Assembly (NCBI GenBank): GCA_048498695.1
Contig: JBEHXM010000001.1
Span: 19,940 to 83,939, forward strand
Origin: Bacteroidota bacterium
GTDB taxonomy: Bacteria; Bacteroidota; Bacteroidia; Sphingobacteriales; Sphingobacteriaceae
Length of the DNA stretch: 64,000 bases
Reading direction: 5' to 3'
Part shown: piece after piece, positions 27,943 to 60,358 of the stretch
How the letters are laid out: each line of letters starts with the position of its first letter
Numbering within the stretch: position 1 is the first letter of the stretch
Translations under genes and position numbers: made by a program
The notes under the pieces: model-generated
Seen by the model: only the letters and a program-made list of their open reading frames with translations
Database searches by the model: none
What the model was told of the DNA's origin: nothing

Positions 27943-28007
27943 CAAAATTGCCATGAATCTGCATGAATTAAAATGACTCAGGACATGCACATAAGTGACC
28001 TTGGTCA
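27943..28007 (-). promoter_or_regulatory. Paired TGAY-N4-RTCA boxes (27974, 27996) + -7 element for adh
   Basis: TGACTCAGGACA and TGACCTTGGTCA 22 bp apart; CAATTTTG on the minus strand 23 nt from the proximal box. Confidence 0.7.
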
Positions 28008-28047
28008 AGCTCTTAATTTTAAGGTTTGCTTGCCCTGTGATCAAAAC

Positions 28048-28112
28048 TGACTAAGATCATTTATTCCACTGACGGCAATCAGCAAGCCGCTTTGAGAGGT
28101 GAATTAACTTTG
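28048..28112 (+). promoter_or_regulatory. Paired boxes (28048, 28070) + -7 element for hyp-pta-ackA
   Basis: TGACTAAGATCA and TGACGGCAATCA; TAACTTTG at 28105. Confidence 0.75.
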
Positions 28113-28131
28113 TGGTATAAAATTAGAAATC

Positions 28132-28539
28132 ATGACAACAGCAATCGAAGACAGCGAATTGGACGCTGAATTACAGGAGCTTTACCTGGTAAATAAACAA
28201 TGGTTATCTGACTTGGAATTCCTCGATACCGAATTGGAATTCTTAAGGAAGCTTGCCGCAACGGCATCAGTGGCGGTGATCAGAAACGAAGAATTGAACA
28301 GCCTTTATATTTTAGAGGACAGCTACTCCTTCCTTAAAACGGACCTGACGGCATACCTGCATCAGCTCGAACCCTTAATCAAAGGGGAATGCAAAGAACT
28401 GGATCTGAAATTGATCGAAAGTTATACGCAATTGAAGACACGTCTTGCCGAGATGTTTGAGCAATGCAGCAAGCTGAAGAAAGAGATTTTTGAAGTGACC
28501 AAAGCCGATATGATCGAGGCGCATGCTATTATTGAATAG
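28132..28539 (+). CDS. Hypothetical alpha-helical protein
   Basis: 135-aa acidic, Leu-rich ORF with WLSDLEFLDTELEFL; first gene of the pta-ackA operon. Confidence 0.75.
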   Translation: MTTAIEDSELDAELQELYLVNKQWLSDLEFLDTELEFLRKLAATASVAVIRNEELNSLYILEDSYSFLKTDLTAYLHQLEPLIKGECKELDLKLIESYTQLKTRLAEMFEQCSKLKKEIFEVTKADMIEAHAIIE

Positions 28540-28565
28540 TGGTAGCGTTATAAAACCTAATTATT

Positions 28566-30680
28566 ATGGCAAAAACAGTTTTAATTGCGGCTGCCGAGCC
28601 AGGCAGCGGAAAGTCTGTCATAACGATCGGGCTGGTCAACAGCCTTTTGTGTAAAACGAAAAAAGTAGCCTTTTTTAAACCGATCATCAACACAGATGAC
28701 AAGGACAAAAAAGATGTACATATCCAGACCGTCCTTAATCATTTTGAGATTCCGCTTGATTACACCGACACCTATGCGTTTACAAGGCAGGAAGCCATGC
28801 AATTCATAGAAAATGAGAGCCACGGGGAAATGATCGATGCAATCATTGGTAAATACAAGATGATGGAACAGAATTTTGATTTTACGGTGATGGAGGGTAG
28901 CGACTTTACAGGGGAAGGCGTGGCCATTGAATTTGAATTGAACCTGCTCATCGCTAAAAACCTGAGCAGCCCGGCCATCCTGGTGGTCTCAGGCGAATGT
29001 AAAACAGTGGGACAGATCGTCAATGAGAGCCTGAATTTCCTGCATAATTTCAAGGATCACGATATCCAGGTATTGGCTATGATCGTGAATAAGGTCAACC
29101 CGGAACAGTACGAACTGGTGAAAGATATACTTTCCAACCAATTGTCCGGCGATGTGATCCTCTCCGTAATTCCGGATGATCCCGGACTGAAGAACCCTAC
29201 TGTTAAAGAAATATTTGAATATCTCAACGGGGAATTGCTTTTCGGTGAAGAGCTTTTGGATAACCAGGTCGATAATTTTGTGACGGGCGCCATGCAGCTG
29301 CCTAATTTCCTTAACCATATCAAAGAAAACGTACTTATCGTTACGCCCGGAGACAGGGGGGATATTATTATAGGCTCCCTGCAGGCAAATCTGTCCTCCA
29401 GTTATCCCAAAGTTGCAGGAATTGTATTAACGGCGGGGACCAAGCCGGAAGAGCCCGTGATGCGCCTCATCAATGGCCTGCACAGTGTTGTTCCTATCCT
29501 GTCAGTAGAAACCGGTACATTTCAGGCCAGTACGCTCATCGGCGGACTGAGATCGAAGATCGCTTCGGACAATCCAAAAAAAATTCAACTGGCGATCGAT
29601 ACCTTCAATAAATACGTTGACGTTTCGGCGCTTGACAATCAAATTATCACTTACCAGTCTGAGGCGCTTACGCGCCATATGTTCCAGTACCAACTGGTAA
29701 AATGGGCGAAACGGCAAATTAAAACTATCGTATTGCCGGAAGGTGATGATGACCGGATATTAAAAGCGGCGGCACGGCTGGCAGGCCAGGGTATCGCGAG
29801 GCTCATCATCCTTGGAAACTCTTCGGAGGTCGCAGAATCCTATAAGCGGCTTGGCATCGACGTACCGTCGGGAATAACTATCATCAATCCTCAGAATTAT
29901 GGTCAATTTGAGGATTATGTCAGCACGCTGTTCGAGCTACGCAAATCCAAAGGAATGACAATGGAAATGGCACGTGACCTGATGTCGGACGTTTCCTATT
30001 TCGGGACGATGATGGTTTTCAAAGGCGATGCAGATGGCATGGTCTCGGGAGCTGTTCACACCACTCAGCACACCATCAGGCCGGCATTACAGGTCATCAA
30101 AACGAAACCGGGCATTACAACTGTATCATCGGTATTTTTTATGTGCCTGGAGGACAGAGTTTGTGTTTTTGGCGATTGCGCCGTCAACCCGAATCCAACA
30201 GCAGAACAATTGGCCGAAATCGCCATTTCTTCGGCGGAAACGAGCCTTGCATTCGATCTTGAACCCCGGATCGCGATGCTTTCCTATTCATCAGGAAATT
30301 CAGGGAGCGGCGAGGAGGTAGACAAGGTCCGCAGGGCGACAACTATCGTTAAACAATCCCGTCCTGAAATTAAAATTGAGGGGCCGATCCAATATGATGC
30401 GGCGGTCGATCCGGTGATCGGGAAACAAAAGCTGCCGGGCTCGGAAGTCGCCGGACAGGCCAGCGTCCTGATATTTCCTGACCTGAATACCGGAAACAAT
30501 ACCTACAAGGCGGTGCAGCGGGAAACCGGGGCACTAGCCATCGGGCCGATATTGCAGGGCCTGAATAAGCCGGTCAACGACCTGAGCAGGGGATGTACGG
30601 TTGAGGACGTGTTCAATACGATCATCATTACAGCCATCCAGGGCCAGCAGGTATATCAGCTGACGGAATCCTTAACTTAA
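28566..30680 (+). CDS. pta: Phosphate acetyltransferase (long form with DRTGG domain)
   Basis: TPGDRGD, LPEGDDDRIL, GAVHTTQHTIRPA, GPILQGLNKPVNDLSRG. Confidence 0.96.
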   Translation: MAKTVLIAAAEPGSGKSVITIGLVNSLLCKTKKVAFFKPIINTDDKDKKDVHIQTVLNHFEIPLDYTDTYAFTRQEAMQFIENESHGEMIDAIIGKYKMMEQNFDFTVMEGSDFTGEGVAIEFELNLLIAKNLSSPAILVVSGECKTVGQIVNESLNFLHNFKDHDIQVLAMIVNKVNPEQYELVKDILSNQLSGDVILSVIPDDPGLKNPTVKEIFEYLNGELLFGEELLDNQVDNFVTGAMQLPNFLNHIKENVLIVTPGDRGDIIIGSLQANLSSSYPKVAGIVLTAGTKPEEPVMRLINGLHSVVPILSVETGTFQASTLIGGLRSKIASDNPKKIQLAIDTFNKYVDVSALDNQIITYQSEALTRHMFQYQLVKWAKRQIKTIVLPEGDDDRILKAAARLAGQGIARLIILGNSSEVAESYKRLGIDVPSGITIINPQNYGQFEDYVSTLFELRKSKGMTMEMARDLMSDVSYFGTMMVFKGDADGMVSGAVHTTQHTIRPALQVIKTKPGITTVSSVFFMCLEDRVCVFGDCAVNPNPTAEQLAEIAISSAETSLAFDLEPRIAMLSYSSGNSGSGEEVDKVRRATTIVKQSRPEIKIEGPIQYDAAVDPVIGKQKLPGSEVAGQASVLIFPDLNTGNNTYKAVQRETGALAIGPILQGLNKPVNDLSRGCTVEDVFNTIIITAIQGQQVYQLTESLT

Positions 30681-30686
30681 AAATTT

Positions 30687-31904
30687 ATGAATATCCTGGT
30701 AATTAACAGCGGCAGCAGTTCAATTAAATATCAACTGTTTAAAATGCCGGATGAGAGCCCGCTATGCAGTGGCATAGTGGAAAGGATCGGACTCGACAAC
30801 GCCAGTATCAGCCATTCAGTTTTCCTTGATGGAAAGGAAATAAAGAGAAAGGTTACAGCCGTCATTCCCGGCCATCGGGTTGGTATGCAAGAAGTAGGCA
30901 AACTGCTAACCGACGCTGAATATGGGGTGATTAAGCATCCCGGAGATATACAGGTTGTAGGGCACAGGATCGTTCATGGCGGCGAAAAAATGACCATGCC
31001 AATTGTTATCACAGAAAATGTGAAAAAGGAAATTAAACGGCTGTTTTCATTGGCCCCATTGCATAACCCCGGCCACTACCAGGGTATCGAAGTTGCGCAG
31101 CAGTTATTTCATCAGGCGACACATATTGCGGTATTCGATACCGCATTCCACCAAACTCTGCCGGAGAAAGCGTTTCGCTATGCTATTCCTCAAAACTTTT
31201 ATGCTGATCAAGGCATCAGGGTGTACGGGTTTCATGGGATCAGCCACCAATATGTTTCAAAAAAAGCCATGGAATTCCTTGACAGGCCTGATGCTAAGAT
31301 CATCACGGTGCACCTTGGCAATGGCTGCAGCATGGCTGCGATAAACGCAGGAAAATCTATCGATACGACCATGGGACTGACACCCCTCGATGGTTTGATC
31401 ATGGGAACGCGCAGCGGTAGTATTGACCCTTCGGTATTGCTTTTCCTGATGTCAGAACTGAACTATAGCCAACAACAGTTAAATGATTTGCTTAATAAAA
31501 AGAGCGGAATGCTCGGGCTTACCGGATACAGTGATATGCGGGACATCCGAAAGCTTTTGGAACAGGACGACCAGCGCGCACACCTGGCCTACGAAATGTA
31601 CGCCTACCGTATTCAAAAATATATCGGCGCTTATGCCGCTGCGCTCAACGGACTCGATGCATTGGTGTTTACTGCAGGTGTCGGTGAACATGATGCTATC
31701 GTACGTAAAATGGTATGCAGCCAGCTGGATTTTCTCGGCATCAGGATGGACAATATTAGAAATTGCTCCGGCCAAACGGGTATAAGGGAAATCGGTTCCG
31801 CATTTTCCCGTGTAAATATCCTGGTAATCCCTACGAATGAAGAATTGGAAATAGCAGTGCAATGTGATGAACTGATAGCAGGCACGACCGTTGGAAATGT
31901 TTGA
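30687..31904 (+). CDS. ackA: Acetate kinase
   Basis: INSGSSSIK, GHRIVHGG, APLHNP, YGFHGISH, FTAGVGE, PTNEE. Confidence 0.96.
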   Translation: MNILVINSGSSSIKYQLFKMPDESPLCSGIVERIGLDNASISHSVFLDGKEIKRKVTAVIPGHRVGMQEVGKLLTDAEYGVIKHPGDIQVVGHRIVHGGEKMTMPIVITENVKKEIKRLFSLAPLHNPGHYQGIEVAQQLFHQATHIAVFDTAFHQTLPEKAFRYAIPQNFYADQGIRVYGFHGISHQYVSKKAMEFLDRPDAKIITVHLGNGCSMAAINAGKSIDTTMGLTPLDGLIMGTRSGSIDPSVLLFLMSELNYSQQQLNDLLNKKSGMLGLTGYSDMRDIRKLLEQDDQRAHLAYEMYAYRIQKYIGAYAAALNGLDALVFTAGVGEHDAIVRKMVCSQLDFLGIRMDNIRNCSGQTGIREIGSAFSRVNILVIPTNEELEIAVQCDELIAGTTVGNV

Positions 31905-31920
31905 GTTGTAAAATCTAAAT

Positions 31921-31958
31921 GCCCGCCTGTCATGTTTGAAATTGGCAGGCGGGCTTTT
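31921..31958 (+). terminator. Terminator after ackA
   Basis: GCCCGCCTG/CAGGCGGGC stem followed by TTTT. Confidence 0.75.
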
Positions 31959-31985
31959 ACGTTTTTAGAAATATCTTCTGTTCCT

Positions 31986-34229
31986 CTAGAAGAATAGACT
32001 GAATTTCAGTTTTGCAAAGAATGGTGTCCCTGGGGTAATGCTAACACCGTCAACGGGTGTTGCTTCGCTTCTCAACTTAGTTTCTTCCTCTACTGAATAT
32101 TCATCCCACTTAGTATTCAGCAAATTTTCAATGGAGAGACCGATCTCATAGCGTTTTTTCGTATAGTTAATAGCAAAGTCGGTTACATAATAGCCCCTTG
32201 CCTTGAGTGAGTAATCGTTATTTGCAGGGCGGTCGGTCATGCAGCGATAACTTAATCCGCCGTTGATGCCATTTTTCAATTTGAAGTCCAGTCCGCCCGT
32301 GCTGGTAAAGGTTGGCGCCAGTGCTACATATCCCTGGCCCTTCAGGCTATCCAGCAGGCGGGGCTTAGCGATATTCACGTTAAGCCTGCCATATAGCCAA
32401 TCGGTAAACTGGTAACGTGCAGTAAAATCTGCACCAATTCGCCGGGTCTGGCCTCCAGGCTCAACACCTCCGTCATCCGTAAACACAAATTCCTGGTGGA
32501 GGTAGAGGTACCAAAGGGCCATATTGATATATAACTTTGGCAAAGGTTTCCAATTTACGCCGAGGTCCGTGCCATAGGCAGAAGGCAAGGTTTGCAAACC
32601 GTTTTGATAGATCACCGCCCGGGTGTCGTTTGAATGAAATCCTTTTCCTGTTTTTAAATAGAACTGAAGTGACGGATCTGCGGTGAATTCGATGTTCAGT
32701 TTGGGGCTAAAGATAACGTTGCTGATCGAAGGGACAGAGGCGTCGAGCTTGTTGTCGTAATTGAAACGGAAATAATCAACTCGGGTTCCTGCATTGAACA
32801 CCCATTTCCCATATTCAATGCTTTCATCGATAAAGCCATTAATATTGTTCTCTAAAATATTGCCCAGCTGATCCACTGACAGCACATTATTTTGTGGGTC
32901 TACATGATCAAGTTCGGAATTGTTTGTCCGGTCGAGCCTCAGCCCAAGGCCTGCGGCAGAAGTTAAAGATGCGTTCGACCAATCGTTCCGGTGGCTAAAC
33001 CGGCCGTTGTAACCAAACAGATTTCTTGCTTCCCGTTGCTTTACAGCGTCACCATTCAGGCTATCCTCTGCGAAGAATGTACTGTTAACCCGCAAACGAA
33101 AATTATACCGGCTGTAGTAGATTTGATTTTCCAGCGAGTTGCCGTCTTTCAGATCAGTAGTTAGCCGGGCAATGATATTGGCCCTGTTTGAGCTGCCACC
33201 TTGCAGGCTGTCTATCGTGGCGAAACGGTTGAGGCTCCCATTGTCAATTAACCGAACCGGGATCTCGCCTGAAGCGCGCCAGTTGGTATTAAAATAGGAA
33301 GCTATGAAGGTGAATTTGTTGGCAGAATCCAGCATGATATTATATTTCCCGAACACGTTCACGCGTTTATAATGTTCAGCGAATTGAAAGGGGCCGTCTG
33401 TATAATTATACTCACCTGCTATATAGGCGTTTTGACCTTTTGCGCTGTTTCTTTCGTTCAACAAATTGATCATGGCCATTTCACGATGGGTATTGAACTG
33501 CCCTGCTTCCAGGCGTATCATGCTGTTGGTCAATGCATTTTTTGTCTGATAATTCACATAGCCGGCTGTGGTAAAGTCACCATAATTTGTATAATAAGGG
33601 CCCTTGCCAAAATCGTAGCCGGACACGGTTTCGGGGATCAGGTAATGCATATCTGCATATCCCTGGCCGTGAATGTGTGACACCATATTTACGGGCAGTC
33701 CATCGATGGAAATGTTTACGTCGGTGCCGTGGTCGGCATCAAATCCTCTCAGGAATATCTGTTCTGCTTTTCCTCCTCCCATGTGCTGGGCGATGAACAA
33801 ACCGGGTACCAGGCGCAGCAAGTCCTGCGATGAGTTGACCGGCCTCAAATTGAGATCGAGTTTGCAGATGGTATTGAAACAACAAGTGTTTAATTGCGGT
33901 GCAATTCTTACTTCCCTTAGATTGATGGAAGCAGGAGATAGTGCAAAAGTCATCCCGTTGCAGCATGACCTGGCACATACTTCCTGCGTCGCATATCCGA
34001 GGTAGGTGACCGTTATCATGGATGAATCTGAAGGTACCAGGATTTTGAAAATGCCAAACTTGTCCGTGCCGGAACTTCTTCCGGAAGACCTGGCGGTAAT
34101 GGTTGCAAACTCAATGGGCTGATGGGTAGCGGAGTCAATGACTTTTCCGCTGATTATTTTTTGTGCGTTGCTGATTTCTGAAAGGAGCAGCAGCGAACTA
34201 AACAAAAGTATTTTTTTAATAATAGACAT
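31986..34229 (-). CDS. TonB-dependent receptor (non-SusC; probable metal/cofactor substrate)
   Basis: Signal peptide, carboxypeptidase-like N-domain, plug QHMGGGKAEQIFLRGFDADHGTD, ENLLN, C-terminal F. Confidence 0.9.
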   Translation of the reverse strand: MSIIKKILLFSSLLLLSEISNAQKIISGKVIDSATHQPIEFATITARSSGRSSGTDKFGIFKILVPSDSSMITVTYLGYATQEVCARSCCNGMTFALSPASINLREVRIAPQLNTCCFNTICKLDLNLRPVNSSQDLLRLVPGLFIAQHMGGGKAEQIFLRGFDADHGTDVNISIDGLPVNMVSHIHGQGYADMHYLIPETVSGYDFGKGPYYTNYGDFTTAGYVNYQTKNALTNSMIRLEAGQFNTHREMAMINLLNERNSAKGQNAYIAGEYNYTDGPFQFAEHYKRVNVFGKYNIMLDSANKFTFIASYFNTNWRASGEIPVRLIDNGSLNRFATIDSLQGGSSNRANIIARLTTDLKDGNSLENQIYYSRYNFRLRVNSTFFAEDSLNGDAVKQREARNLFGYNGRFSHRNDWSNASLTSAAGLGLRLDRTNNSELDHVDPQNNVLSVDQLGNILENNINGFIDESIEYGKWVFNAGTRVDYFRFNYDNKLDASVPSISNVIFSPKLNIEFTADPSLQFYLKTGKGFHSNDTRAVIYQNGLQTLPSAYGTDLGVNWKPLPKLYINMALWYLYLHQEFVFTDDGGVEPGGQTRRIGADFTARYQFTDWLYGRLNVNIAKPRLLDSLKGQGYVALAPTFTSTGGLDFKLKNGINGGLSYRCMTDRPANNDYSLKARGYYVTDFAINYTKKRYEIGLSIENLLNTKWDEYSVEEETKLRSEATPVDGVSITPGTPFFAKLKFSLFF

Positions 34230-34367: not shown

Positions 34368-34736
34368 CTATTGAGGAGGCTGAATAATTCCCGGCGGCGG
34401 CAGATCTAGCAGGCTTGCCAGGTAGGGCGTGGAAATAACTGCCGTCAGGCCCGTATGGAACACGAACCTGTAAATGGGTTCGACTATACTTTCCTGGATA
34501 TTATCCTGTTGGCTTTCCCGGCTTTCCTTTTTTCCCTTTTCTTCGGCTTGCCTGATCTTCTTCATCAGGTAACATTTTCCATTGCAGTGTATCCAGGGTT
34601 TATTCTTGTTTTCGCAAAAGGAAGCGGTGATATATTTTTGATTAACCTTAAACGCAGCGCAAATGAAGTACCTGGAACAGTTCGAAACTGTCAGCGTAAT
34701 CAGAAGCATAAAAGCGATCATTCGGTTAAACATCAT
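34368..34736 (-). CDS. Cys-motif hypothetical protein (C-x9-CNGKC; ends IIQPPQ), candidate leader of the TonB receptor
   Basis: 122-aa ORF with hydrophobic N-terminus, FCENKNKPWIHCNGKCYL, Pro-rich C-terminus. Confidence 0.75.
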   Translation of the reverse strand: MMFNRMIAFMLLITLTVSNCSRYFICAAFKVNQKYITASFCENKNKPWIHCNGKCYLMKKIRQAEEKGKKESRESQQDNIQESIVEPIYRFVFHTGLTAVISTPYLASLLDLPPPGIIQPPQ

Positions 34737-34755
34737 TCGGGGTTCTTAATGCTGA

Positions 34756-34820
34756 CAAATCTACCCCGGCCTGAAAAGTCCTGCCATGAGCATCATCACC
34801 TGTAAAAATGATCTGTATCA
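34756..34820 (-). promoter_or_regulatory. Paired boxes (34787, 34809) + -7 element for the Cys-motif ORF / TBDR
   Basis: TGAGCATCATCA and TGATCTGTATCA; TAGATTTG on the minus strand 23 nt from the proximal box. Confidence 0.7.
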
Positions 34821-34929
34821 GTTTTGACATTTCCTGGTACAAGGGGGAATTTCAATGGATTGAGGGGCATGCAGCGTGGAAATCTCCGATTTCAGGCTTT
34901 CGGTGCCGAACGTCAAACACATTTAAAAA

Positions 34930-34972
34930 TGATTGAGGTCATTTTTAACGGGCAAAGCCGTGCTCAACTTTA
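34930..34972 (+). promoter_or_regulatory. Single box + -7 element for the exporter operon
   Basis: TGATTGAGGTCA at 34930; CAACTTTA at 34965. Confidence 0.6.
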
Positions 34973-35001
34973 CCGCTGTTTAAAATGCAATTGAATTGGA
35001 T

Positions 35002-38408: not shown

Positions 38409-38504
38409 CAAAAATAAAAGACACTGACGTCCGCAATAGTGACGTCAATCATATTTTAACATGACACCTGTCATACCCCAGGCCTGTAATTAAGAACAAC
38501 TTTG
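38409..38504. promoter_or_regulatory. Bidirectional paired-box promoter (38440, 38462) for cupin and the nos operon
   Basis: TGACGTCAATCA and TGACACCTGTCA; TATTTTTG (minus, 38409-38416) and CAACTTTG (plus, 38497-38504), each 23 nt from its nearer box. Confidence 0.75.
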
Positions 38505-41170: not shown

Positions 41171-41183
41171 AATCTGATTGATC

Positions 41184-41762
41184 ATGAAAAATTTAACCAT
41201 ACCCGGCAAAGCAAGTATCATAGGAGTGATATTATTTCTTGCTTCCTTGTGGATATTTCCAATGTGGAGAATTGATCTGCGTGCGCCCCAGTATCCTGGC
41301 GGCCTGTCGATGAAAATATGGATCAATGACGTCAAGGGGGATGTGGACATCATCAATGGATTAAACCATTATATAGGGATGAGCACCATCCATAAAAAGG
41401 ATTTCCCTGAGTTCGTATTTCTGCCGTCAACGATGGCCATATTTATGATCCTGGGAGTAGCCGTATTATTCATCAATAAGAAAATAGCCTACTATATCTG
41501 GACGTTGTTGTTTGCATTTATCGGCATATTTTCATTCTATGATTTTTATAAGTGGGAATATAACTACGGTCATAATTTGAACCCTGAGGCACCAATAAAA
41601 GTGCCGGGGATGTCTTACCAGCCGCCCCTTTTCGGGTATAAAAAGCTGCTCAACTTTGAAGTGCTTTCGCAACCGGATATTGCCGGATGGTTTTATATCG
41701 GTGCCGGGGTTATTCTGGTAGCAATAACTATTTATGAATTCAAAAAAAGTCTGGCAAAATGA
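41184..41762 (+). CDS. Clade II nos membrane protein (NosB-like)
   Basis: APQYPGGL, INGLNHYIGM, YNYGHNL, YQPPLFG motifs. Confidence 0.82.
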   Translation: MKNLTIPGKASIIGVILFLASLWIFPMWRIDLRAPQYPGGLSMKIWINDVKGDVDIINGLNHYIGMSTIHKKDFPEFVFLPSTMAIFMILGVAVLFINKKIAYYIWTLLFAFIGIFSFYDFYKWEYNYGHNLNPEAPIKVPGMSYQPPLFGYKKLLNFEVLSQPDIAGWFYIGAGVILVAITIYEFKKSLAK

Positions 41763-45339: not shown

Positions 45340-45672
45340 CTACCAGCCTAGCTCTTTCCGGCCGTCTTCGCTGATCTTGTCAGCGGACCATTCAGGTTCA
45401 AAGGTGAGGTTGATGCGGATCTCATAACCGGGGCAGGCTTCTTTACCCATTATGGCAACACTGCCCCTGATGTATTCACCCGCCGGGCAGGCGGGCGTTG
45501 AGAGTGTCATGGTGATCTCCGCTACTCGGTTAGCTTTATCGATCTCAATACCATAGATCAGACCCAGATCAACAATATTGAGTTCAAGCTCCGGGTCACG
45601 CACGAGTGAAAGCAGTTGCAGAAGACGTATTTTTTCCTCGTAACAGGGGTCAAATATTGCGATATCTTTCAT
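45340..45672 (-). CDS. DUF59 / SufT-like metal-sulfur cluster assembly factor
   Basis: DPELELNIVDLGLIY, TLSTPACP, FEPEW motifs. Confidence 0.88.
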   Translation of the reverse strand: MKDIAIFDPCYEEKIRLLQLLSLVRDPELELNIVDLGLIYGIEIDKANRVAEITMTLSTPACPAGEYIRGSVAIMGKEACPGYEIRINLTFEPEWSADKISEDGRKELGW

Positions 45673-46924
45673 TTCTTAATTGATTAACGACGTTAAAAGT
45701 ATGCCAGCAGTAAATGATGGATGCTGCTATCATCATCGTGCAGCCCGGATACATCAGGTATCCCGACCGGATGACAATACCGCTTAGGAAAAGAAGAAAC
45801 CCCGGGAGGTAAAGCGCAAGCTGGAGCATAACCAGTTGTTCATAATAAAGGTCTTTTGGCTGAAGCGCCGCTAAACGATCAGGTTTTGTTAAATGCATCC
45901 ATATAATAAAGGGCAAGGTTTTAAATGTCTGCCCCATGATGAGCGTGGTGATAAATCCCCCGAAAAATGAATACCCGTAAGCTGTGATCATAGCCACCGG
46001 CGCACTTCTGGAATGCAAAAGATAGGCCAGCATGATAAGTCCTGGCAGCGCAATCGAGCCAATGGCAACGAAAGTCACTTTCATGCCGGCATCCATTTTC
46101 TTCCGAATAGCGCTTTTATAACATTGCCATATATAACACAGGTAACAAAAGATCCCCAGGCCGACCAGGGAAATATACCAGATGGTTCCGTGGCTGGAAC
46201 GCAGTACGAGCCCTTCGATTAAAAAAAGAACAAGCCCTGAGTTGATCAGGTAATAGGCTAGCGTCAGGAAAGTTTTTACCTCCTTCCTGCTAAGCAGGAA
46301 CATGGGCACGAGCCGGGAACTGACACCAATGACCAGTAACAAAAACCAGCCGGCCATTCCAATACTTGCATGCACCTTCAGGTAATGCAGGTGATCTTCC
46401 GGGAGGAAACTTAACCTGAAATTAAATAAGAGGGTGATTCCGGCGATGGCAGTCAAGACCAGCCAGATATGTGCAGTCAGGATAAAGTCTATCGTGATAT
46501 TCCTGAGTGGGGAACGGCTTGCGGTAAGACAAATGTTGACCGAATGCAGCAGTAGAGCGGTCAGAATAGCAAACGCCCCTGCAAATATCGGCCAGGTTAA
46601 TTCAAAGTTCCAGAAGGAATGAACCAAAAGGCAGGTACCCAATATCAAAAAAACAAAAGCAATAACGGGCAACCGCTCACTATAGAGCCGGGTGTCTGCA
46701 ATAACGGGCATCAGCTGGTTACTCGCCCCAAGGATGATCATAGTGCCCCATCCAAACACAGTCAGATGGGTGATTGCAAGGAGGTGCGGCTGAAAAAAAT
46801 GCCCGGAAAAATCCCGGATGGTATACAGGGCCATCAGGCTGATGATCACCAGGCAACAAGCCGCTGTTAAATAATAGGGCAGGATGGCTGCTTTGCCCGG
46901 TATGTGTCGTTCAGATAAGTTCAT
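45650..46924 (-). CDS. Polytopic membrane protein with His motifs (NnrS / oxidase-subunit-I-like)
   Basis: THLTVFGW and VHASIGMAGW; roughly 12 hydrophobic segments; family by inference. Confidence 0.65.
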   Translation of the reverse strand: MNLSERHIPGKAAILPYYLTAACCLVIISLMALYTIRDFSGHFFQPHLLAITHLTVFGWGTMIILGASNQLMPVIADTRLYSERLPVIAFVFLILGTCLLVHSFWNFELTWPIFAGAFAILTALLLHSVNICLTASRSPLRNITIDFILTAHIWLVLTAIAGITLLFNFRLSFLPEDHLHYLKVHASIGMAGWFLLLVIGVSSRLVPMFLLSRKEVKTFLTLAYYLINSGLVLFLIEGLVLRSSHGTIWYISLVGLGIFCYLCYIWQCYKSAIRKKMDAGMKVTFVAIGSIALPGLIMLAYLLHSRSAPVAMITAYGYSFFGGFITTLIMGQTFKTLPFIIWMHLTKPDRLAALQPKDLYYEQLVMLQLALYLPGFLLFLSGIVIRSGYLMYPGCTMMIAASIIYCWHTFNVVNQLRNERYRNI

Positions 46925-48746: not shown

Positions 48747-50054
48747 TTAATTAATGGTTTCTAATATTTTTTCTTTGAGGGCCGTTTTCTCACGCTTAGC
48801 TGTCTGTGTTACCGCTGCCGGCTTCCCGGTTACTGAAATTAGCAGTAACGTTGCACCGCAGAACAACAGGATGGCCGCAACCCATAGCAGCCAGGGATAA
48901 AAGGGGCTGCTCAGCATGTACATGACTGAAATCCCCTGTACCATCAGAATTGCCTCATTTGCCGCAACAGCTGCTGCAAAAACCACGATCGCCTTTTTCG
49001 ACAGCGATTCTCTGGCGACAAAAAATCCGGCATGAAATAGGTGGGCGAAAAGGTATAAAGTCACAAAGCCCAGCATGACCAGGTGCAGGTAACCAATGAT
49101 GATAGGCCGGTCACCGAAGACTTCATTTCCAACCGAAGGAAATACAATGCCGATCTGCACAGTCGTTTTAATGAAAAATGACATCATTGACAAGCCGCCG
49201 ATGAATTTTGGAAACGGCCTGATTTGCCAGAAGGTATTTTTCATGGCGATCATCGTGGATGTGAAATGGTACAATAGGACGGCCAATAGAACACATCCGC
49301 CTATTGCAATTCCCCGGATGTAATTATTGGGGTAATGCCATAAGTAGGAAAGGAATAATGTCGGCAGGACTGCCAGGGTCAAAACCACTGCGAAATGATC
49401 GACCCTTGTTCGGGCGGATTTCGTTAACCCGGTGTAATATAGGTTGAACAATAACGCAAACAGGGCTAACGTAAAAAAGCCGTTGTATTGTAAATGAAGG
49501 TACGTATAAATTGAGTCTTTGTATAGCAGGAGATTCGCATGATGTGAGGCCATCATATAGGCCAAAGTGAAAGGCCCCACCGAAGAAAGACTTGCAAAGA
49601 TCAGGGCGGCGATGCTTAGTAAAGTGACCGCCCGGCCGGCATTGCTCTGGAGCAAATCCCTAATAAATATCCAGCTAAATCCGTAGGTGAAAAAGATAAA
49701 CAGCGTTGAGAAAATGATCGAATAAAGGCCATACCCCTCGAATGGAAAACTTAACAGCATGCCTAGTGCCGCGAGTAGTATACCTGAAAGCAGTATTTTG
49801 TATTTGGCCTGGCGGTTCAACCTGGCCGGCAATATCTCATAAACCATCAGGGTAAAGAGGCACAAGGTTATCCAGCCTCCGAATGCGAAGTGTGAATGTG
49901 CGTGCAGCAAGTTTTTAAAATCTATCCAGGGCAGAGAGAACAGGATTTTGGAACGCAGGATCATCCCCAGGAAAGCTACGATGGCAAGGTTTGCCAGAGA
50001 AATCATTAACCACCTGTTTTTTTCCTTATTCATCGTTGTTGTGTTTATTAGCAC
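48747..50054 (-). CDS. Polytopic membrane protein with His motifs (NnrS / oxidase-subunit-I-like)
   Basis: HAHSHFAFGGW, YLHLQYNGF, YLHLVMLGF; roughly 12 TM segments. Confidence 0.65.
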   Translation of the reverse strand: MLINTTTMNKEKNRWLMISLANLAIVAFLGMILRSKILFSLPWIDFKNLLHAHSHFAFGGWITLCLFTLMVYEILPARLNRQAKYKILLSGILLAALGMLLSFPFEGYGLYSIIFSTLFIFFTYGFSWIFIRDLLQSNAGRAVTLLSIAALIFASLSSVGPFTLAYMMASHHANLLLYKDSIYTYLHLQYNGFFTLALFALLFNLYYTGLTKSARTRVDHFAVVLTLAVLPTLFLSYLWHYPNNYIRGIAIGGCVLLAVLLYHFTSTMIAMKNTFWQIRPFPKFIGGLSMMSFFIKTTVQIGIVFPSVGNEVFGDRPIIIGYLHLVMLGFVTLYLFAHLFHAGFFVARESLSKKAIVVFAAAVAANEAILMVQGISVMYMLSSPFYPWLLWVAAILLFCGATLLLISVTGKPAAVTQTAKREKTALKEKILETIN

Positions 50055-50572: not shown

Positions 50573-50668
50573 GCAAGGTAGCCCGGCCAGCTTTGCCAAC
50601 CGATGACCGGGGTCATGCTGATAAATGATTTACATCATGTTTATTTCCGGCCCGGAGAGTTAATATTG
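50573..50668. promoter_or_regulatory. Bidirectional paired-box promoter (50604, 50626) for rrf2 and usp
   Basis: TGACCGGGGTCA and TGATTTACATCA; TACCTTGC (minus) and TAATATTG (plus), each 23 nt from its nearer box. Confidence 0.7.
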
Positions 50669-54248: not shown

Positions 54249-54473
54249 TTCGGTGCTGTCTTTGTCGCGATAACCCCATTCCTGTCCATCCTTCAACTCG
54301 GGATATTTAAACTGCTTATCTTTCAAAATGCAGCAGATCATCCAAACAAAGACAAATGGCCATACAATACCCATTATCATAATCAATAGAGGCGGGGGAT
54401 CGAGGTTGATCAGGGCAGCATAAGCGAACAAGTAGATTGTTGTCACAATGACGGATTCCTTTGCGCTGTTCAT
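54234..54473 (-). CDS. Small two-TM hypothetical protein
   Basis: 79-aa ORF with two hydrophobic segments and a charged tail, 67 nt downstream of hemA. Confidence 0.6.
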   Translation of the reverse strand: MNSAKESVIVTTIYLFAYAALINLDPPPLLIMIMGIVWPFVFVWMICCILKDKQFKYPELKDGQEWGYRDKDSTELGIF

Positions 54474-54540
54474 AACTGTTTAATTTAGTTATAACAACCA
54501 TTGGATGTGGGTAATGTTTTGACTAATAATAGTTTGCGGG

Positions 54541-55818: not shown

Positions 55819-55844
55819 CCACCGCCGGCCGTATTTCTCAGGGG

Positions 55845-55909
55845 TAAAATTGAGGATTGTTTCTATTTGAGCTCATGACGATTATCATAGGCCTAAGTGA
55901 TTATCATCA
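55845..55909 (-). promoter_or_regulatory. Paired boxes (55876, 55898) + -7 element for hemA
   Basis: TGACGATTATCA and TGATTATCATCA; CAATTTTA on the minus strand at 55845-55852. Confidence 0.72.
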
Positions 55910-55938
55910 CATTTTCCGATTTACAAAAGGTATTTTAA

Positions 55939-56003
55939 TGACCGAGGTCACAGGTGGCAATGACCGCTATCATTGTCGTTGGGGCGTTATGTCAGCAATT
56001 TTG
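55939..56003 (+). promoter_or_regulatory. Paired boxes (55939, 55961) + -7 element for LOG-hemH
   Basis: TGACCGAGGTCA and TGACCGCTATCA; CAATTTTG at 55996. Confidence 0.75.
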
Positions 56004-56022
56004 TTCATGCTGACCAAATCAA

Positions 56023-56748
56023 ATGAGGATGAATAAATCTGAGATCATATTTCTGGACGGGCCCCATTCCCGGTTAAGCGAACTGCGGTTCACCGTGCAA
56101 ACCCTGTTTGAATTTGTCAGGGGATTCCGGGCCATGCATTTTATAGGGCCGTGCATTACCGTATTTGGATCGGCACGTTTTAAAGAGGACCATCCCTACT
56201 ATTCACTTACCAGGGAAGCTTCTGCGGAGTTTGCGAGGCTGGGGTTCACGATTTTGACGGGTGGCGGGCCGGGCCTGATGGAGGCTGCCAACCGCGGGGC
56301 CAGGGATGTGGGCGGGCGCTCAGTGGGTTGTAACATTCAGCTTCCAATGGAGCAAAAACCAAACCCATACCTGGATAAATGGATCAATGTAAAGCACTTT
56401 TTCCTTCGTAAAGTCCTGCTCGTTAAATATTCCTTTGCTTTCGTGGTTATGCCGGGAGGCTATGGTACACTGGATGAATACTTTGAGGCATTGACCCTAA
56501 TCCAGACTCATAAGATCAAGGATTTTCCCGTGATCATTTTTGGGAAAGAATACCATAAGGACCTGATCGCACATATGGAGCGGATGCAGGCTAACTCTAC
56601 GATCGGCGCCAACGATATTAATCTTTGCCTGGTCACCGACAGCATTGAAGAGGCTAAACAATTGATCATTGAAAAAAGTATCAACCAATATGGCCTGAAG
56701 CCGAAGAATAAGATCAAACCATTAAAGTGGCTGTTCGAACATGTTTAA
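56023..56748 (+). CDS. LOG-family Rossmann-fold protein (TIGR00730-like)
   Basis: VFGSAR, TGGGPGLMEAAN, PGGYGTLDE. Confidence 0.9.
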   Translation: MRMNKSEIIFLDGPHSRLSELRFTVQTLFEFVRGFRAMHFIGPCITVFGSARFKEDHPYYSLTREASAEFARLGFTILTGGGPGLMEAANRGARDVGGRSVGCNIQLPMEQKPNPYLDKWINVKHFFLRKVLLVKYSFAFVVMPGGYGTLDEYFEALTLIQTHKIKDFPVIIFGKEYHKDLIAHMERMQANSTIGANDINLCLVTDSIEEAKQLIIEKSINQYGLKPKNKIKPLKWLFEHV

Positions 56749-57805
56749 AGAAATGACAATGAATAAGAAAGGAATATTGCTGGTTAATCTCGGCACGCCT
56801 GATAGTCCCTCTACGCCGGACGTCAGAAAATATCTGAAAGAATTCCTAATGGATGAAAGAGTGATCGATATTCATCCATTTCTCCGGACCTTGCTGGTTA
56901 AGGGAATGATCGTACCCTTCAGGGCGCCAAAATCAGCTAAATTATACAAAGCTATTTGGAGCGACAAAACCGGCTCTCCCTTGCTTAGGTACAGCAAGCT
57001 ACAGCAAAGCCTTTTGCAGGAAAGATTAGGGGATGAATACCTGGTGGATTTAGGTATGCGGTATCAGAACCCTTCCATTGAAGAGGCCCTAAACCGGTTA
57101 CTGGCTGCAAACGTCGACCATATCACGGTAATTCCCTTGTTTCCTCAATATGCATCAGCAAGCTCCGGTTCTGTCTATCAGAAAGTGATGCGGGTTCTCG
57201 CAAACCGGGCGGTCATACCCAGCTTATCCTTTGTGAATTCGTTCCACGACGATGAACTGATGATCAGTGCATTTGCTGAAAACGGACAGATTTTTAATCC
57301 GCAGGAATACGACCATGTTTTATTCAGTTTTCATGGGGTTCCTAAACGGCAGTTACGAAAAGCGGGGTGCAATGACTCTCATGATCAAATGGGTATTTGT
57401 TGTAAGGGCCTGACGGATCGGAACAAGAATTGTTATGCGGCACAATGCCACGACACTGCAAGACTGATCGCAGCAAGACTGGATCTGCCTGATTCACAAT
57501 ATTCAATTTCATTCCAGTCCCGGTTAGGCAATGATCCATGGATAGAACCTTATACAAGCGGGGTGCTGACTGAATTGGCCAATTCAGGGAAAAGGAGGGT
57601 ATTAGTATTTTGCCCTGCATTCGTTTCTGATTGCCTGGAGACGATCTACGAGATCAGGGAGGAAGGCCTGGAAACTTTTCAAATGTCCGGAGGTGTTGAG
57701 CTCGATCTTGTGCCCAGCCTGAATGATTCGGCGACCTGGATCGAAGCCCTCGCGGGGCTGGCCATTAAAAATAGCCCGGTAACGGAATATGCCTTTGAAT
57801 ATTGA
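56741..57805 (+). CDS. hemH: Ferrochelatase
   Basis: LLVNLGTPDSP, PLFPQYASAS, FSFHGVP, FQSRLG, FVSDCLET. Confidence 0.94.
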   Translation: MFKEMTMNKKGILLVNLGTPDSPSTPDVRKYLKEFLMDERVIDIHPFLRTLLVKGMIVPFRAPKSAKLYKAIWSDKTGSPLLRYSKLQQSLLQERLGDEYLVDLGMRYQNPSIEEALNRLLAANVDHITVIPLFPQYASASSGSVYQKVMRVLANRAVIPSLSFVNSFHDDELMISAFAENGQIFNPQEYDHVLFSFHGVPKRQLRKAGCNDSHDQMGICCKGLTDRNKNCYAAQCHDTARLIAARLDLPDSQYSISFQSRLGNDPWIEPYTSGVLTELANSGKRRVLVFCPAFVSDCLETIYEIREEGLETFQMSGGVELDLVPSLNDSATWIEALAGLAIKNSPVTEYAFEY

Positions 57806-57830
57806 TTGCGGGTACTTCAGAACCTATTGT

Positions 57831-57895
57831 TGCTGACTGTCAATATATTTCGTGACATCGGTCATTTATAAACACGTGCCGCTGATCGAATTTTG
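57831..57895 (+). promoter_or_regulatory. Paired boxes (57831, 57853) + -7 element for the L,D-transpeptidase
   Basis: TGCTGACTGTCA and TGACATCGGTCA; GAATTTTG at 57888. Confidence 0.65.
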
Positions 57896-57913
57896 TTTTA
57901 AACATTAAGCGTT

Positions 57914-59377
57914 ATGAAAACTCTAAAAACATTCTTAGCAACGTTCGACAAAAGCAAGCACCTGCATATCACGGTTGGTTTGATTTTGGTTGCGCTCCTT
58001 CAGGCCCCACTTGCCGGCAGGGCGCAGCAATCCTTATCGGACATTTCGGTTTCTTCAGAAATTAAGAAACAATTATTCGACCCGGGAACGACCAAATCGC
58101 TGTTTTTTCCGAAGTCGGTTTCTGCTTTTTATTCATCAAATAATTTTCAGCCGGTTTGGATAAACAGCCAAGTATACTCGAAGCAGACAGGGGAAGCTAT
58201 GATGCTGCTGGATTGTGTCCTGCAGTATGGACTGTCGCACAAAGATTATCATCCCAATGAACTGACCTATGATGTTTTGCGGGATATTTCTGAAAAACCG
58301 GCTTCTGTTAGTTTGGAAAAAAAAGCAAGGTTCGAGTTATTGTTGACAGATGCGCTGCTCACACTGATGAACAATATGCACTTTGGAAAACTAAACCCAT
58401 ATTGCAGCGCAGAAAAAATTGATGTCGGCATCGCCGGCTTTAGTGCACCTGATAGTTTAAGCCTGGCTTTGAAAAGCCCGCTTTTCATGAGGACCATTGA
58501 AAATTCGCAGCCGAGGGTAAAAGCGTATCGCGATCTTCAGGACCATATGCGGCAGTTAGAGGGCGTTTATAAAGAAGATTGCTACGTTACTCCGGAGGCG
58601 GACGTAAGAAAAATGGCCATCAATATGGAACGTATCCGTTGGGGATCATTCGATGAAAACACCTATATCCAAATTAACATACCAACTTATGCTTTGTTGT
58701 TAAAACTACCGGACACCTGCTACAAATTTAAAGTTATTGTCGGAAAGCCTGAAACTCCCACACCAACCCTGCTGAGCGCGATCACCTATTTTACGACAGC
58801 ACCGGAATGGAGAGTGCCTAAAAGTATCTTTGCGAAGGAAATACTGCCAAAAGCAATAAAGGATACAGCCTTCCTTGAAAATAATCATTATGCAATTTAT
58901 GATCACCAGGGTAATTTTCTTGAACCGACCCACGGGCAATTGATCGAAGCCGGCAAGCACCCATCTCTATACTATGCAAGACAATCAGCCGGATGCGATA
59001 ATTCTCTTGGATTGATCGTTTTCCGTTTCCAGAATATCTATGACGTTTATCTTCACGATACTCCCGAACAAAAATTATTTAAAGGGAATGAGCGGGCTTT
59101 CAGCCATGGCTGCATACGGGTAGAGCAGGCTAAGGAACTTGCCGCACTTTTGCTGACGGCGGATCGTGCTAAAGATCAAATTAAAACAATGCGGAACGCT
59201 ATTGCTGCTTATCAGACCAGGGATTTTAAGTTGCATAAACAAATCCCTTTAAAAATAACCTACCTGACCTGTGAAATGCACGAAGGCGAGTTGATCCTGC
59301 ATCCCGATATTTACGATCTTGATAAAAGCCTGGAGCTTGCCCTATATGGCGGCAACGAAACGCTGACCAACAGGTAA
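57914..59377 (+). CDS. L,D-transpeptidase (YcbB/LdtD-like scaffold + YkuD domain)
   Basis: INMERIRW, VIVGKPETPTP, VYLHDTP, SHGCIRV. Confidence 0.9.
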   Translation: MKTLKTFLATFDKSKHLHITVGLILVALLQAPLAGRAQQSLSDISVSSEIKKQLFDPGTTKSLFFPKSVSAFYSSNNFQPVWINSQVYSKQTGEAMMLLDCVLQYGLSHKDYHPNELTYDVLRDISEKPASVSLEKKARFELLLTDALLTLMNNMHFGKLNPYCSAEKIDVGIAGFSAPDSLSLALKSPLFMRTIENSQPRVKAYRDLQDHMRQLEGVYKEDCYVTPEADVRKMAINMERIRWGSFDENTYIQINIPTYALLLKLPDTCYKFKVIVGKPETPTPTLLSAITYFTTAPEWRVPKSIFAKEILPKAIKDTAFLENNHYAIYDHQGNFLEPTHGQLIEAGKHPSLYYARQSAGCDNSLGLIVFRFQNIYDVYLHDTPEQKLFKGNERAFSHGCIRVEQAKELAALLLTADRAKDQIKTMRNAIAAYQTRDFKLHKQIPLKITYLTCEMHEGELILHPDIYDLDKSLELALYGGNETLTNR

Positions 59378-59391
59378 GAAGCAAAATGCGG

Positions 59392-60201
59392 TCAAATGTT
59401 TGTATCGGGAGGAAAAAGCGGGCTGAATTTAATATCTTCAATGCTGCCTTTGAAGTATGGGTAGTCTCCTGATGGTAAACTCCATATGGCTTTGAAATCA
59501 GCAGGGATCTTATAACCTGTTATAGTTTTGATATTATCTGCGACGGCAGTCCACTTGTAAGAGATGTATTGTCCCTTTACAGCGTAATAGCGGTCATTCG
59601 TTTCAAACCGCAGGAAGCGTCCCTCTTCGGTGAAATAAAATAGCCCTTTGGCTTTAATTCCGTGATCCTCAATGGTACCTTCGACAGTGATCCGGTCAAT
59701 GCTTCTCCAGGTAATATATCGTTGCAGGGCATAAATAGGCAGGAATATTGTTTCTGCTAAAATGGTCACTAACTCTGCCTGGTCCATTTCTTTGCCTTTG
59801 TCATTAGAGACTGTGAACCATTTGAAAATTTTGATAATCATATTACCTGTGCCCCGGCGGTATTTGTCCATCGCTGTGAATGGTATGAGCCCGGCAACCC
59901 TGGCGTTCATTTTAGCCAGCCTCACCGGTTCCGGGAAATAATTGGCCTGCTCACAGGCTAACTGCACCCATCCCTTGCCAGGCGACATGCAAAGGTTTGC
60001 GTCGCTCCATTTAATACTCGCGCAAAAGAAAGCTTCACCACCGGTATAGCCGCAATTGAGCAGGTATCTTCTGAGTATATCCGGTAATTCCGCCATCGGT
60101 CTTCTGCGGATCAGGTTACTCCCCGACCGAAGGCAAAGCATTGCCTCTTCAGTTTTCTCCCGGTCAAATCTGGTTACAATACTCTGGTTGAAAAACATCA
60201 A
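59392..60201 (-). CDS. Hypothetical protein (DUF6544-like)
   Basis: LPDILRRYL, Q-x-N...EPVRL, DQAELVTILAE; family from memory. Confidence 0.7.
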   Translation of the reverse strand: MMFFNQSIVTRFDREKTEEAMLCLRSGSNLIRRRPMAELPDILRRYLLNCGYTGGEAFFCASIKWSDANLCMSPGKGWVQLACEQANYFPEPVRLAKMNARVAGLIPFTAMDKYRRGTGNMIIKIFKWFTVSNDKGKEMDQAELVTILAETIFLPIYALQRYITWRSIDRITVEGTIEDHGIKAKGLFYFTEEGRFLRFETNDRYYAVKGQYISYKWTAVADNIKTITGYKIPADFKAIWSLPSGDYPYFKGSIEDIKFSPLFPPDTNI

Positions 60202-60218
60202 AATAATATTGGGGTTTA

Positions 60219-60261
60219 CAAAAGTCCCAGTTATATGATTGTCTTCAAATGAGCAAGATCA
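60219..60261 (-). promoter_or_regulatory. Single box (60250) + -7 element for the DUF6544-like gene
   Basis: TGAGCAAGATCA; GACTTTTG on the minus strand 23 nt away. Confidence 0.5.
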
Positions 60262-60293
60262 CATTCGTCAATATTTTGATTCAATCTCAAATT

Positions 60294-60358
60294 TGCTTTA
60301 GATCATGCCTGGAAATGACTTAAATCATTATTCAAACGGCCCTGATTTTTCAACTTTA
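60294..60358 (+). promoter_or_regulatory. Paired boxes (60294, 60316) + -7 element for usp
   Basis: TGCTTTAGATCA and TGACTTAAATCA; CAACTTTA at 60351. Confidence 0.65.

Follow-up and report, generated by a model that had tools for sequence, protein, structure and literature searches.

Paired boxes at thirteen promoters

The stretch analyzed here, referred to as the window, comprises 64,000 nucleotides (C1:19940-83939) of a 5.03-Mb Bacteroidota genome in 241 contigs; plain coordinates refer to the window and C-prefixed coordinates to contigs of the genome. The nearest loci in public genomes come from Mucilaginibacter (Sphingobacteriaceae), and we therefore take the source, on the strength of these matches, to be a soil Mucilaginibacter metagenome-assembled genome (MAG). 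Between 26882 and 61259 lies a block of genes that are the predicted targets of one regulatory system, and its subject is a pair of inverted-repeat boxes held at a fixed distance from a promoter element (Table 1). Genes were assigned by Pfam and NCBIfam scans, and Pfam confirmed the classes of genes (fermentation, N2O reduction, heme synthesis, Fe-S repair, uptake, universal stress proteins (USPs), and cell wall) listed in an earlier, sequence-only reading of this DNA.

That reading had described pairs of the box TGAY-N4-RTCA, 22 bp apart, at thirteen promoters, with the gene-proximal box 23 nt from a -7 element resembling TAnnTTTG. We scored boxes by their matches to TGAY-N4-RTCA (out of 8) and -7 elements by their matches to TAnnTTTG (out of 6). 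All nine of the 22-bp pairs that it had named were present, five with both boxes exact (28048, 38440, 50604, 55876, and 55939) and four with a single mismatch in one box (27974, 34787, 57831, and 60294). The two boxes it had taken for singles, at 34930 and 60250, were also found, and each proved to have a weak partner (5/8) at a distance of 22 bp. With these, all thirteen promoters were re-derived with their coordinates. Neither pairs nor composite matches of pair and -7 element were found in the window left of 27.9 kb, in agreement with the earlier remark that intergenic DNA left of 26.6 kb lacks such pairs.

Table 1. Predicted promoters with paired boxes in the window, the gene block that they serve, and the continuation of the island on contig C1 (box scores out of 8 in parentheses; distances in the ATG column are measured from the -7 element).
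Feature	Position	Strand	-7 element	Boxes	ATG	Pfam families
Predicted target block: adh; 135-aa open reading frame (ORF)-pta-ackA; 122-aa ORF-TonB receptor; hlyD-macB-ABC; cupin; cyt c-nosZ-(194-aa ORF)-nosLDFY; rrf2...queD; usp-P-type ATPase; hemA; LOG-hemH; ykuD; DUF6920; usp	26882-61259					
adh (Zn-alcohol dehydrogenase)	27943-28007	-	CAATTTTG 27943-27950	proximal 27974-27985 (7/8); distal 27996-28007 (8/8)		
135-aa ORF-pta-ackA	28048-28112	+	TAACTTTG 28105-28112	distal 28048-28059 (8/8); proximal 28070-28081 (8/8)	28132, 19 nt on	PTA_PTB, Acetate_kinase
122-aa ORF + TonB-dependent receptor	34756-34820	-	TAGATTTG 34756-34763	proximal 34787-34798 (7/8); distal 34809-34820 (8/8)	34736, 19 nt on	Plug, CarbopepD_reg_2
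HlyD-MacB-ABC exporter	34908-34972	+	CAACTTTA 34965-34972	weak distal 34908-34919 (5/8); proximal 34930-34941 (8/8)		HlyD_3, FtsX/MacB_PCD, ABC_tran
Cupin (-) / cytochrome c, nosZ, nosLDFY (+), divergent, one shared pair	38409-38504	both	TATTTTTG 38409-38416 (-); CAACTTTG 38497-38504 (+)	38440-38451 (8/8); 38462-38473 (8/8)		Cupin_2, Cytochrom_C, nos_propeller, NosL, NosD
rrf2-ric-DUF2249-DUF59-queD operon (-) / USP, P-type ATPase (+), divergent, one shared pair	50573-50668	both	TACCTTGC 50573-50580 (-); TAATATTG 50661-50668 (+)	50604-50615 (8/8); 50626-50637 (8/8)		Rrf2, ScdA_N/Hemerythrin, FeS_assembly_P, PTPS, Usp, E1-E2_ATPase
hemA (glutamyl-tRNA reductase)	55845-55909	-	CAATTTTA 55845-55852	proximal 55876-55887 (8/8); distal 55898-55909 (8/8)		GlutR_N
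LOG-like gene + ferrochelatase (hemH)	55939-56003	+	CAATTTTG 55996-56003	distal 55939-55950 (8/8); proximal 55961-55972 (8/8)	56023, 19 nt on	Lysine_decarbox, Ferrochelatase
YkuD L,D-transpeptidase	57831-57895	+	GAATTTTG 57888-57895	distal 57831-57842 (7/8); proximal 57853-57864 (8/8)	57914, 18 nt on	YkuD
DUF6920 gene	60219-60283	-	GACTTTTG 60219-60226	proximal 60250-60261 (7/8); weak distal 60272-60283 (5/8)		DUF6920
Tandem-USP gene	60294-60358	+	CAACTTTA 60351-60358	distal 60294-60305 (7/8); proximal 60316-60327 (8/8)		Usp
592-aa gene with phosphoketolase, bidirectional pair	C1:85579/85601					
ccoI + cbb3 oxidase cluster, promoter of fused ccoNO	C1:88210			pair spaced 23 bp		
115-aa gene	C1:94848					
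hemN + ldhA-like dehydrogenase, island part beyond the window	C1					

The window contains 24 matches to TGAY-N4-RTCA against 4.45 expected, a count attained by none of 100 dinucleotide-preserving shuffles. The distribution of spacings singled out 22 bp across the whole genome: among pairs of exact boxes no more than 100 bp apart, nine had this spacing, and the only other spacings (41, 52, 63, 74, and 85) arose from neighboring double pairs. When at most one mismatch was allowed, 22 pairs were spaced by 22 bp, compared with 0-9 (mostly 0-5) at each other spacing from 12 to 60. The distance to the promoter was similarly constrained: counted from the edge of the pair, a gap of 23 nt led to a -7 element scoring at least 5/6 in 17 of 44 flanks, and other gaps from 10 to 39 did so in 0-2. 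In a genome-wide grid of pair spacings from 18 to 27 and gaps from 21 to 25 (10 x 5 cells), the cell (22, 23) held 29 composite matches and each of the 49 remaining cells held 0-4, bearing out the rigid two-site geometry that had been claimed and that is kept in relatives. All but one of these composites (28/29) are located on C1 (47.9-100.6 kb), C4 (44.8-81.8 kb), or C114. Lone boxes (7-8/8) with a -7 element at gap 23 showed no enrichment over other gaps, and a wider single-box regulon was rejected on this ground.

Three intergenic regions contain four boxes each (27974-28081, 55876-55972, and 60250-60327). In the last of these the boxes follow a strict 22-bp period (60250, the weak 60272, 60294, and 60316) and serve two divergent promoters. 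The shared-pair arrangement at 50604 is repeated at C4:76765, in a second island of the genome (see below). At adh, the mechanically called ORF start (27964) falls upstream of the predicted -7 element, and an ATG at 27922 (MKALVYHG) lies 20 nt past that element, so the true start is probably 27922.

Operator anatomy and its conservation in Bacteroidota

Alignment of 24 oriented promoters from this genome and 262 distinct promoters from relatives yielded the consensus AAAA-n-TGAY-N4-RTCA-n-TTTT-(5 nt)-TGAY-N4-NTCA-T-(22 nt)-TAnnTTTG. The TGA-N6-TCA core, an inverted repeat with its half-sites N4 apart, is almost invariant across the relatives' promoters; A4 and T4 tracts flank the distal box only; and the spacers between conserved elements vary, while box cores, A/T tracts, and the -7 element are kept. 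The boxes had been likened to FNR sites of the form TTGAT-N4-ATCAA. The palindromic core agrees with that description, but the outer T and A do not: the base preceding TGA in the 262 sites is A in 87, C in 66, G in 92, and T in only 17 (with A in 13 at the mirror position after TCA), and the box is therefore not the canonical one.

Primary promoters of Bacteroidota use a -7 element, TAnnTTTG, together with a -33 element, TTTG. The boxes sit upstream of the -7 element without overlapping it, and in the alignments of both our own and the relatives' promoters no -33 element (TTTG approximately 19-21 nt upstream of the -7 element) was conserved in the 23-nt gap, where the sole conserved base is a T directly after the proximal box. 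This pattern fits promoters of the Bacteroidota sigma-A type with a -7 element and without a conserved -33 element. The center of the proximal box and the opening T of the -7 element are 29.5 bp apart, the separation found in Escherichia coli class II promoters between an activator at -41.5 and the first T of the downstream element at -12. On this scale a proximal dimer would be positioned at approximately -41.5, and the center of the distal site would lie at approximately -63.5, on almost the same helix face and close to the class I position. The ATG is frequently found 18-20 nt past the predicted -7 element (median of 22 nt in 248 relatives' promoters), distances that fit the short mRNA leaders usual for Bacteroidota.

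Some sites depart from the 22-bp spacing. The boxes of the ccoNO promoter (C1:88210-88275) are 23 bp apart and keep the usual 23-nt gap to TAGTTTTA, and a spacing of 23 was seen in some further families (e.g., in genome G036). In relatives, further peaks at spacings of 44 and 65-66 suggest arrays like that at 60250-60327, which repeats every 22 bp.

The relatives were represented by 80 loci of about 21 kb each (1.46 Mb in total), centered on homologs of the regulator described below and taken from Mucilaginibacter, Pedobacter, Arcticibacter, Daejeonella, Flavobacterium, and others. At least one pair was present in 75 of the 80 loci, which together held 170 pairs at spacing 22 versus 0-15 at other spacings, and -7 elements scoring at least 5/6 numbered 132 at gap 23 (74 of them perfect) and never exceeded 14 elsewhere. 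When every box-N(0-30)-box match was counted in relatives belonging to other families, the 34-nt form prevailed. An even sample of 301 genomes from the phylum contained exact pairs in 37, and the reversed-pattern control run alongside gave 0/301. The 22-bp layout reported for the island is thus found there, but it is not peculiar to the island, being widespread in the phylum. Counting promoters with a pair within 10 kb of the regulator, the layout recurs before ldhA-like genes (56), the kinase operon (19), the 115-aa gene (18), USP genes (17, in relatives' loci), ykuD (8, in relatives' loci), adh (4), cyt c-nos (3), and LOG (3).

A candidate receiver-Crp regulator, its kinase, and the proposed reading of the pairs

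HTH_Crp_2 matches were detected in only four stretches of the genome, and the two strongest are proteins of 350 aa with Response_reg, cNMP_binding, and HTH_Crp_2 domains. One is encoded at C1:98316-99368, 14.4 kb past the end of the window, and its paralog is encoded at C114:2832-3884. The sequence-only reading had placed a single CRP/FNR-like activator outside the window and had suggested seeking a receiver (REC)-Crp gene beyond position 64000; the gene is present there, but there are two paralogs rather than one. The receiver (Response_reg, E 6.9e-28) contains E9, D10, D53, T83, and K105 as read from the sequence, and the recognition helix reads T-E-T-V-S-R-T-L, a probable counterpart of the E-x-x-S-R motif (E209/S212/R213) of E. 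coli FNR. None of the NCBIfam models reached its cut-off for the regulator (Fnr, the best for the C-terminal module, scored 96 vs 228 bits and FixK scored 80 vs 300), so that no curated family for it was found in NCBIfam, and no chain spanning both the receiver and the Crp module was found in the PDB.

The stop codon of a kinase gene overlaps the regulator start codon by 4 nt in both copies, and the two kinase-regulator pairs are 84% identical. The kinase is a soluble protein of 395 aa with PAS-HisKA-HATPase architecture. Its PAS domain matches the heme domain of Bradyrhizobium japonicum FixL with E 5.6e-34 (8js5 and 1dp6), the aligned stretches including RHDGYIARY versus RHDSYISRY and IGIGREVTG versus IGIGRIVTG, and the identical residues include those that we take to be the FixL proximal His and two pocket Arg positions. 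These alignments point to a FixL-like heme-PAS sensor kinase for which heme binding is predicted. The protein scores 171 bits against an NCBIfam FixL cut-off of 850.

Both copies of this system are linked to box pairs. One pair lies between each kinase gene and a divergent ccmE-like gene, and a second lies just after each regulator gene, whose TGA stop codon doubles as the opening TGA of the distal box (C1:98285-98318). The pair at the stop codon serves as the predicted promoter of the ldhA-like and hemN genes, and the same overlap recurs in 8 of 11 same-genus loci (L002-L012). Because box pairs adjoin the kinase and regulator genes in both copies, the system looks autoregulated and physically tied to its own sites. 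Two observations concern the neighboring genes. The kinase ATG lies only 6 nt past a -7-like element (C1:100552-100623), a short distance that is repeated at the relatives' kinase genes (19 promoter-ORFs), and a leaderless kinase mRNA is therefore suggested. A stand-alone receiver gene of 117 aa (C1:95386-95739), which is situated between the 115-aa target gene and hemN, could act as a phosphate sink or a branch of the pathway.

The regulator was found in 24 of 24 genomes of the same genus and in 10 of the 16 other families sampled, and at least 579 public-genome stretches encode a relative. In the 301-genome sample it was detected in 41 (40 of them in the class), and regulator and pairs occurred together in 21; absences in this survey are soft because only six candidates were scored per genome. 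Stop-interrupted, receiver-only fragments with 56-72% identity to the regulator N-terminus were noted in some relatives (G020:C27:7989-8378, G013:C1:5155332-5155736, and G028:C133:17569-17958) and may be decayed extra copies.

The thirteen discordant genomes that have pairs and lack the REC form were searched again in full, and ten of them (G172, G117, G121, G320, G204, G073, G077, G298, G262, and G314) were found to encode an FNR-like homolog of 229-264 aa without a receiver. These homologs share 31-41% identity with the regulator over its residues 150-350, most have an E-T-A-I-R helix, and an N-terminal Cys motif (e.g., HVDCKHC-x8-C) is present in 9 of the 11 sequenced. The same pair layout occurs within the fetched stretch for 6 of the 11 (L109, L110, L111, L112, L113, and L116). 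The pair adjoins the stop codon of the homolog in four of these six loci (L109, L110, and L111 among them), lies 85 nt past the stop in L116, and is kilobases away in L112; a -7 element at gap 23 accompanies the pairs in five of the six, L113 having pairs without it. Phosphorylated receivers that bridge two Crp-type dimers were considered as the sole cause of the pairing and were rejected, as the receiver-less homologs adjoin identical pairs with the same 23-nt gap. The occurrence of these homologs beside the same layout therefore argues that pairing goes with the clade's DNA-binding module rather than with the receiver. The input to that module would have been exchanged between a probable Fe-S cluster and a phospho-receiver.

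We consider it likely that low oxygen activates the island through the heme-PAS kinase, phosphorylation of the REC-Crp regulator, and paired-dimer binding. Low oxygen would free the FixL-like kinase to phosphorylate the REC-cNMP-HTH_Crp protein, two dimers of which would bind to a 22-bp box pair with cooperativity. Of these, the proximal one would serve as a class II activator that stands in for the -33 contact, while the distal one would touch the polymerase or bend the DNA towards it. Approximately 28 promoters in two diverged island copies would be switched on directly, in one step, including those for fermentation (adh, pta-ackA, phosphoketolase, and ldhA-like), N2O respiration (nos), cbb3 oxidase, heme synthesis (hemA, hemH, and hemN), NO and Fe-S stress (rrf2-ric), USPs, transporters, YkuD, and the kinase-regulator operon itself. 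The central interpretation of the earlier reading, co-activation of these genes by a CRP/FNR-like protein from paired sites, is supported as far as sequence analysis can test it; we infer binding, its cooperativity, activation, the transcription start sites, and oxygen as the signal from the arrangement of sites and domains.

Several points weigh against this scheme. Twenty regulator-positive genomes of the 301 have no exact pair, and 16 pair-positive genomes have no REC form. Since receiver-less FNR homologs share the layout, the layout alone cannot name the REC form as the binder, and a possible alternative binder, a third Crp/Fnr-family protein with an N-terminal Cys cluster, is encoded in this genome at C10:22380-23069. 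Heme binding and oxygen specificity are predictions made from the kinase sequence. No RNA runs holding this sequence were found, the DNA runs being soil and root metagenomes that contain at most 0.23 of the sampled words. In addition, the genome is a 241-contig MAG, and a co-binned relative could be the source of its second island.

The nearest competitor retains the same regulator and regulon and supposes that a single tetramer (a dimer of dimers), assembled beforehand, recognizes the 34-bp unit; we regard this as unlikely. It would account for a spacing that is fixed at 22 bp across many families, with rare cases of 23 bp, for the failure of lone boxes with a promoter to be enriched and the retention of a half-site partner at 22 bp by the apparent single sites, and for A/T tracts around the distal box that are compatible with DNA wrapping. 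Known CRP/FNR proteins are, however, dimers; functional-looking promoters exist with a very weak distal box (34908, 60272, and C1:85601); and arrays of three and four boxes with a 22-bp period occur, along with the peak at spacing 44.

Another possibility leaves the paired dimers in place and changes the signal, the kinase sensing NO, CO, or redox state rather than O2 and the island forming a nitrosative or redox-stress regulon. The presence of ric (ScdA/hemerythrin), an Rrf2 regulator, and nos among the targets is consistent with such a signal, as are weaker PAS matches to other heme-PAS sensors, including the DosP family. We nevertheless judge it quite improbable, given that the residues aligned with the heme-pocket His and Arg of FixL are unchanged and FixL heme domains head the PDB matches, that the majority of targets have roles classically tied to low oxygen (fermentation, cbb3, oxygen-independent hemN, and USPs), and that the sister regulators bear an FNR-type Cys motif in place of the receiver.

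It is very unlikely that the pairs are bound by the C10 protein, a classical one-component FNR-like protein of 229 aa, with the REC-Crp protein doing something else or modulating the response. This protein has cNMP_binding and HTH_Crp_2 domains and four N-terminal Cys, and Cys-motif FNR homologs do adjoin identical pairs in other Bacteroidota. Its helix, however, reads E-T-L-F-K, unlike the E-T-x-(S/I)-R of the REC form and the pair-linked homologs; it shares only 29% identity with the regulator module and 27-34% with the pair-linked homologs, which places it in another subfamily; its gene is on an unrelated contig and has no pair close to it; and the pairs are physically linked to REC-Crp genes both here and in 75 of the 80 relatives' loci. 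That the pairs are non-regulatory (remnants of repeats or mobile elements, or chance clusters) or are repressor operators is scarcely credible, for although the island has a slightly higher G+C content than its left flank and exists in two copies, conservation is confined to box cores, A/T tracts, and the -7 element and passes over the spacers, the layout is kept at orthologous and non-orthologous promoters across families, the reversed pattern is absent from 301 genomes, and a site upstream of the -7 element in a promoter without a -33 element is unsuited to simple steric repression.

Known systems and the two island copies

The system proposed here, low-oxygen signaling through a fused regulator on paired sites, most resembles the FixL-FixJ-FixK cascade of rhizobia and Caulobacter (FixLJ-FixK2 in Bradyrhizobium diazoefficiens). 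The likeness lies in the heme-PAS kinase, in an FNR/FixK-type module on a TGA-N6-TCA palindrome, and in targets that include cbb3 oxidase, nos, hemN, and other heme genes. The differences are that FixK2 boxes are single sites and the 22-bp pairs are obligate here, and that both the kinase and the regulator fall below the NCBIfam cut-offs for FixL, Fnr, and FixK. Furthermore, the receiver is fused to the Crp/Fnr module, with no FixJ (REC-LuxR/GerE) step and no separate fixK, so the predicted cascade is one step shorter. In rhizobia FixK2 controls nos, as described in PMC5582078. The receiver-less FNR-like regulators of Bacteroidota (G117, G320, G172, G262, G077, and others) share the 22-bp pairs, the 23-nt gap, and a pair after their own stop codon; they differ in having a Cys motif instead of a receiver and no adjacent kinase, and they probably sense O2 directly.

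With E. coli FNR and CRP at class II and tandem ("class III") promoters, the system shares a palindrome with N4 between half-sites of 4-5 bp, an E-x-x-S-R recognition helix, the class II distance to the promoter element, and a second dimer near the class I position. It departs from them in the scarcity of T before TGA, which is part of the E. coli TTGAT, and in its Bacteroidota -7 promoter without a conserved -33 element. Here, too, a second site at a fixed 22 bp is obligatory, whereas in E. coli it is optional and variably placed. The proposed input is receiver phosphorylation, in contrast to an Fe-S cluster or cAMP.

In full-text literature searches no published account was found of a REC-Crp regulator, of a FixL-like kinase in Bacteroidota, or of tandem 22-bp FNR boxes, and none of the three is covered in PMC4999443 or PMC1274295. 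This agrees with the earlier remark that the two-dimer layout was not recognized as described for Bacteroidetes. Nothing published was found, either, on the regulation of nos in Bacteroidota with clade II nosZ. Such Bacteroidota are regarded as important soil sinks of N2O, a greenhouse gas. What the analysis offers is a concrete candidate circuit for nos control, with a sensor kinase, a fused regulator, an exact operator, and approximately 28 target promoters, and it allows members of the regulon to be predicted from sequence in hundreds of species. The exchange of a Cys-motif N-terminus (probably binding an Fe-S cluster) for a phospho-receiver on one DNA-binding and promoter architecture is a natural experiment in input swapping, and the layout illustrates how an activator could substitute for the -33 element of a Bacteroidota promoter.

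More tentatively, and with rather less expectation that it holds in full, these features may define a phylum-wide promoter class of aerobic and facultative Bacteroidota. In such promoters an FNR-type module would function solely as a dimer of dimers. The composite operator, 34-44 bp long, would set an A4/T4-flanked distal palindrome exactly 22 bp from a core proximal one and would replace the -33 element. Evolution would have switched the input of the module between a direct Fe-S oxygen sensor (Cys motif) and a phospho-receiver that takes its signal from a FixL-like heme kinase. In soil Sphingobacteriaceae the switch would be the master control of clade II N2O reduction, and self-contained "hypoxia islands", each with the regulator and its full regulon, would be duplicated or transferred as units.

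The island continues past the window on C1, from the phosphoketolase gene (61344-63746, identified by NCBIfam) to the kinase (C1:81283-100552). A second, syntenic island (C4:43699-82542 and C114:332-5620) includes nos, pta-ackA, rrf2-ric, hemA, and genes for the kinase and regulator; its promoters have the same layout, and the two copies share approximately 50-90% amino-acid identity (NosZ 90%, pta 80%, and regulator 84%). Relatives with complete genomes hold two or three regulator copies, and a true duplication of the island is therefore plausible. The second island may represent either an old duplication, a transfer, or a co-binned relative. The G+C content is 44-47% across the island (28001-64000) and 41-43% in 1-28000. 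ARAGORN found no intact tRNA gene in the window, and tRNA-linked integration of the island was rejected. Five genes of the regulon (28132-28539, 34368-34736, 41178-41762, 45650-46924, and 48747-50054) have no match in Pfam or NCBIfam; all five have paralogs in the second island, with 51-83% identity.

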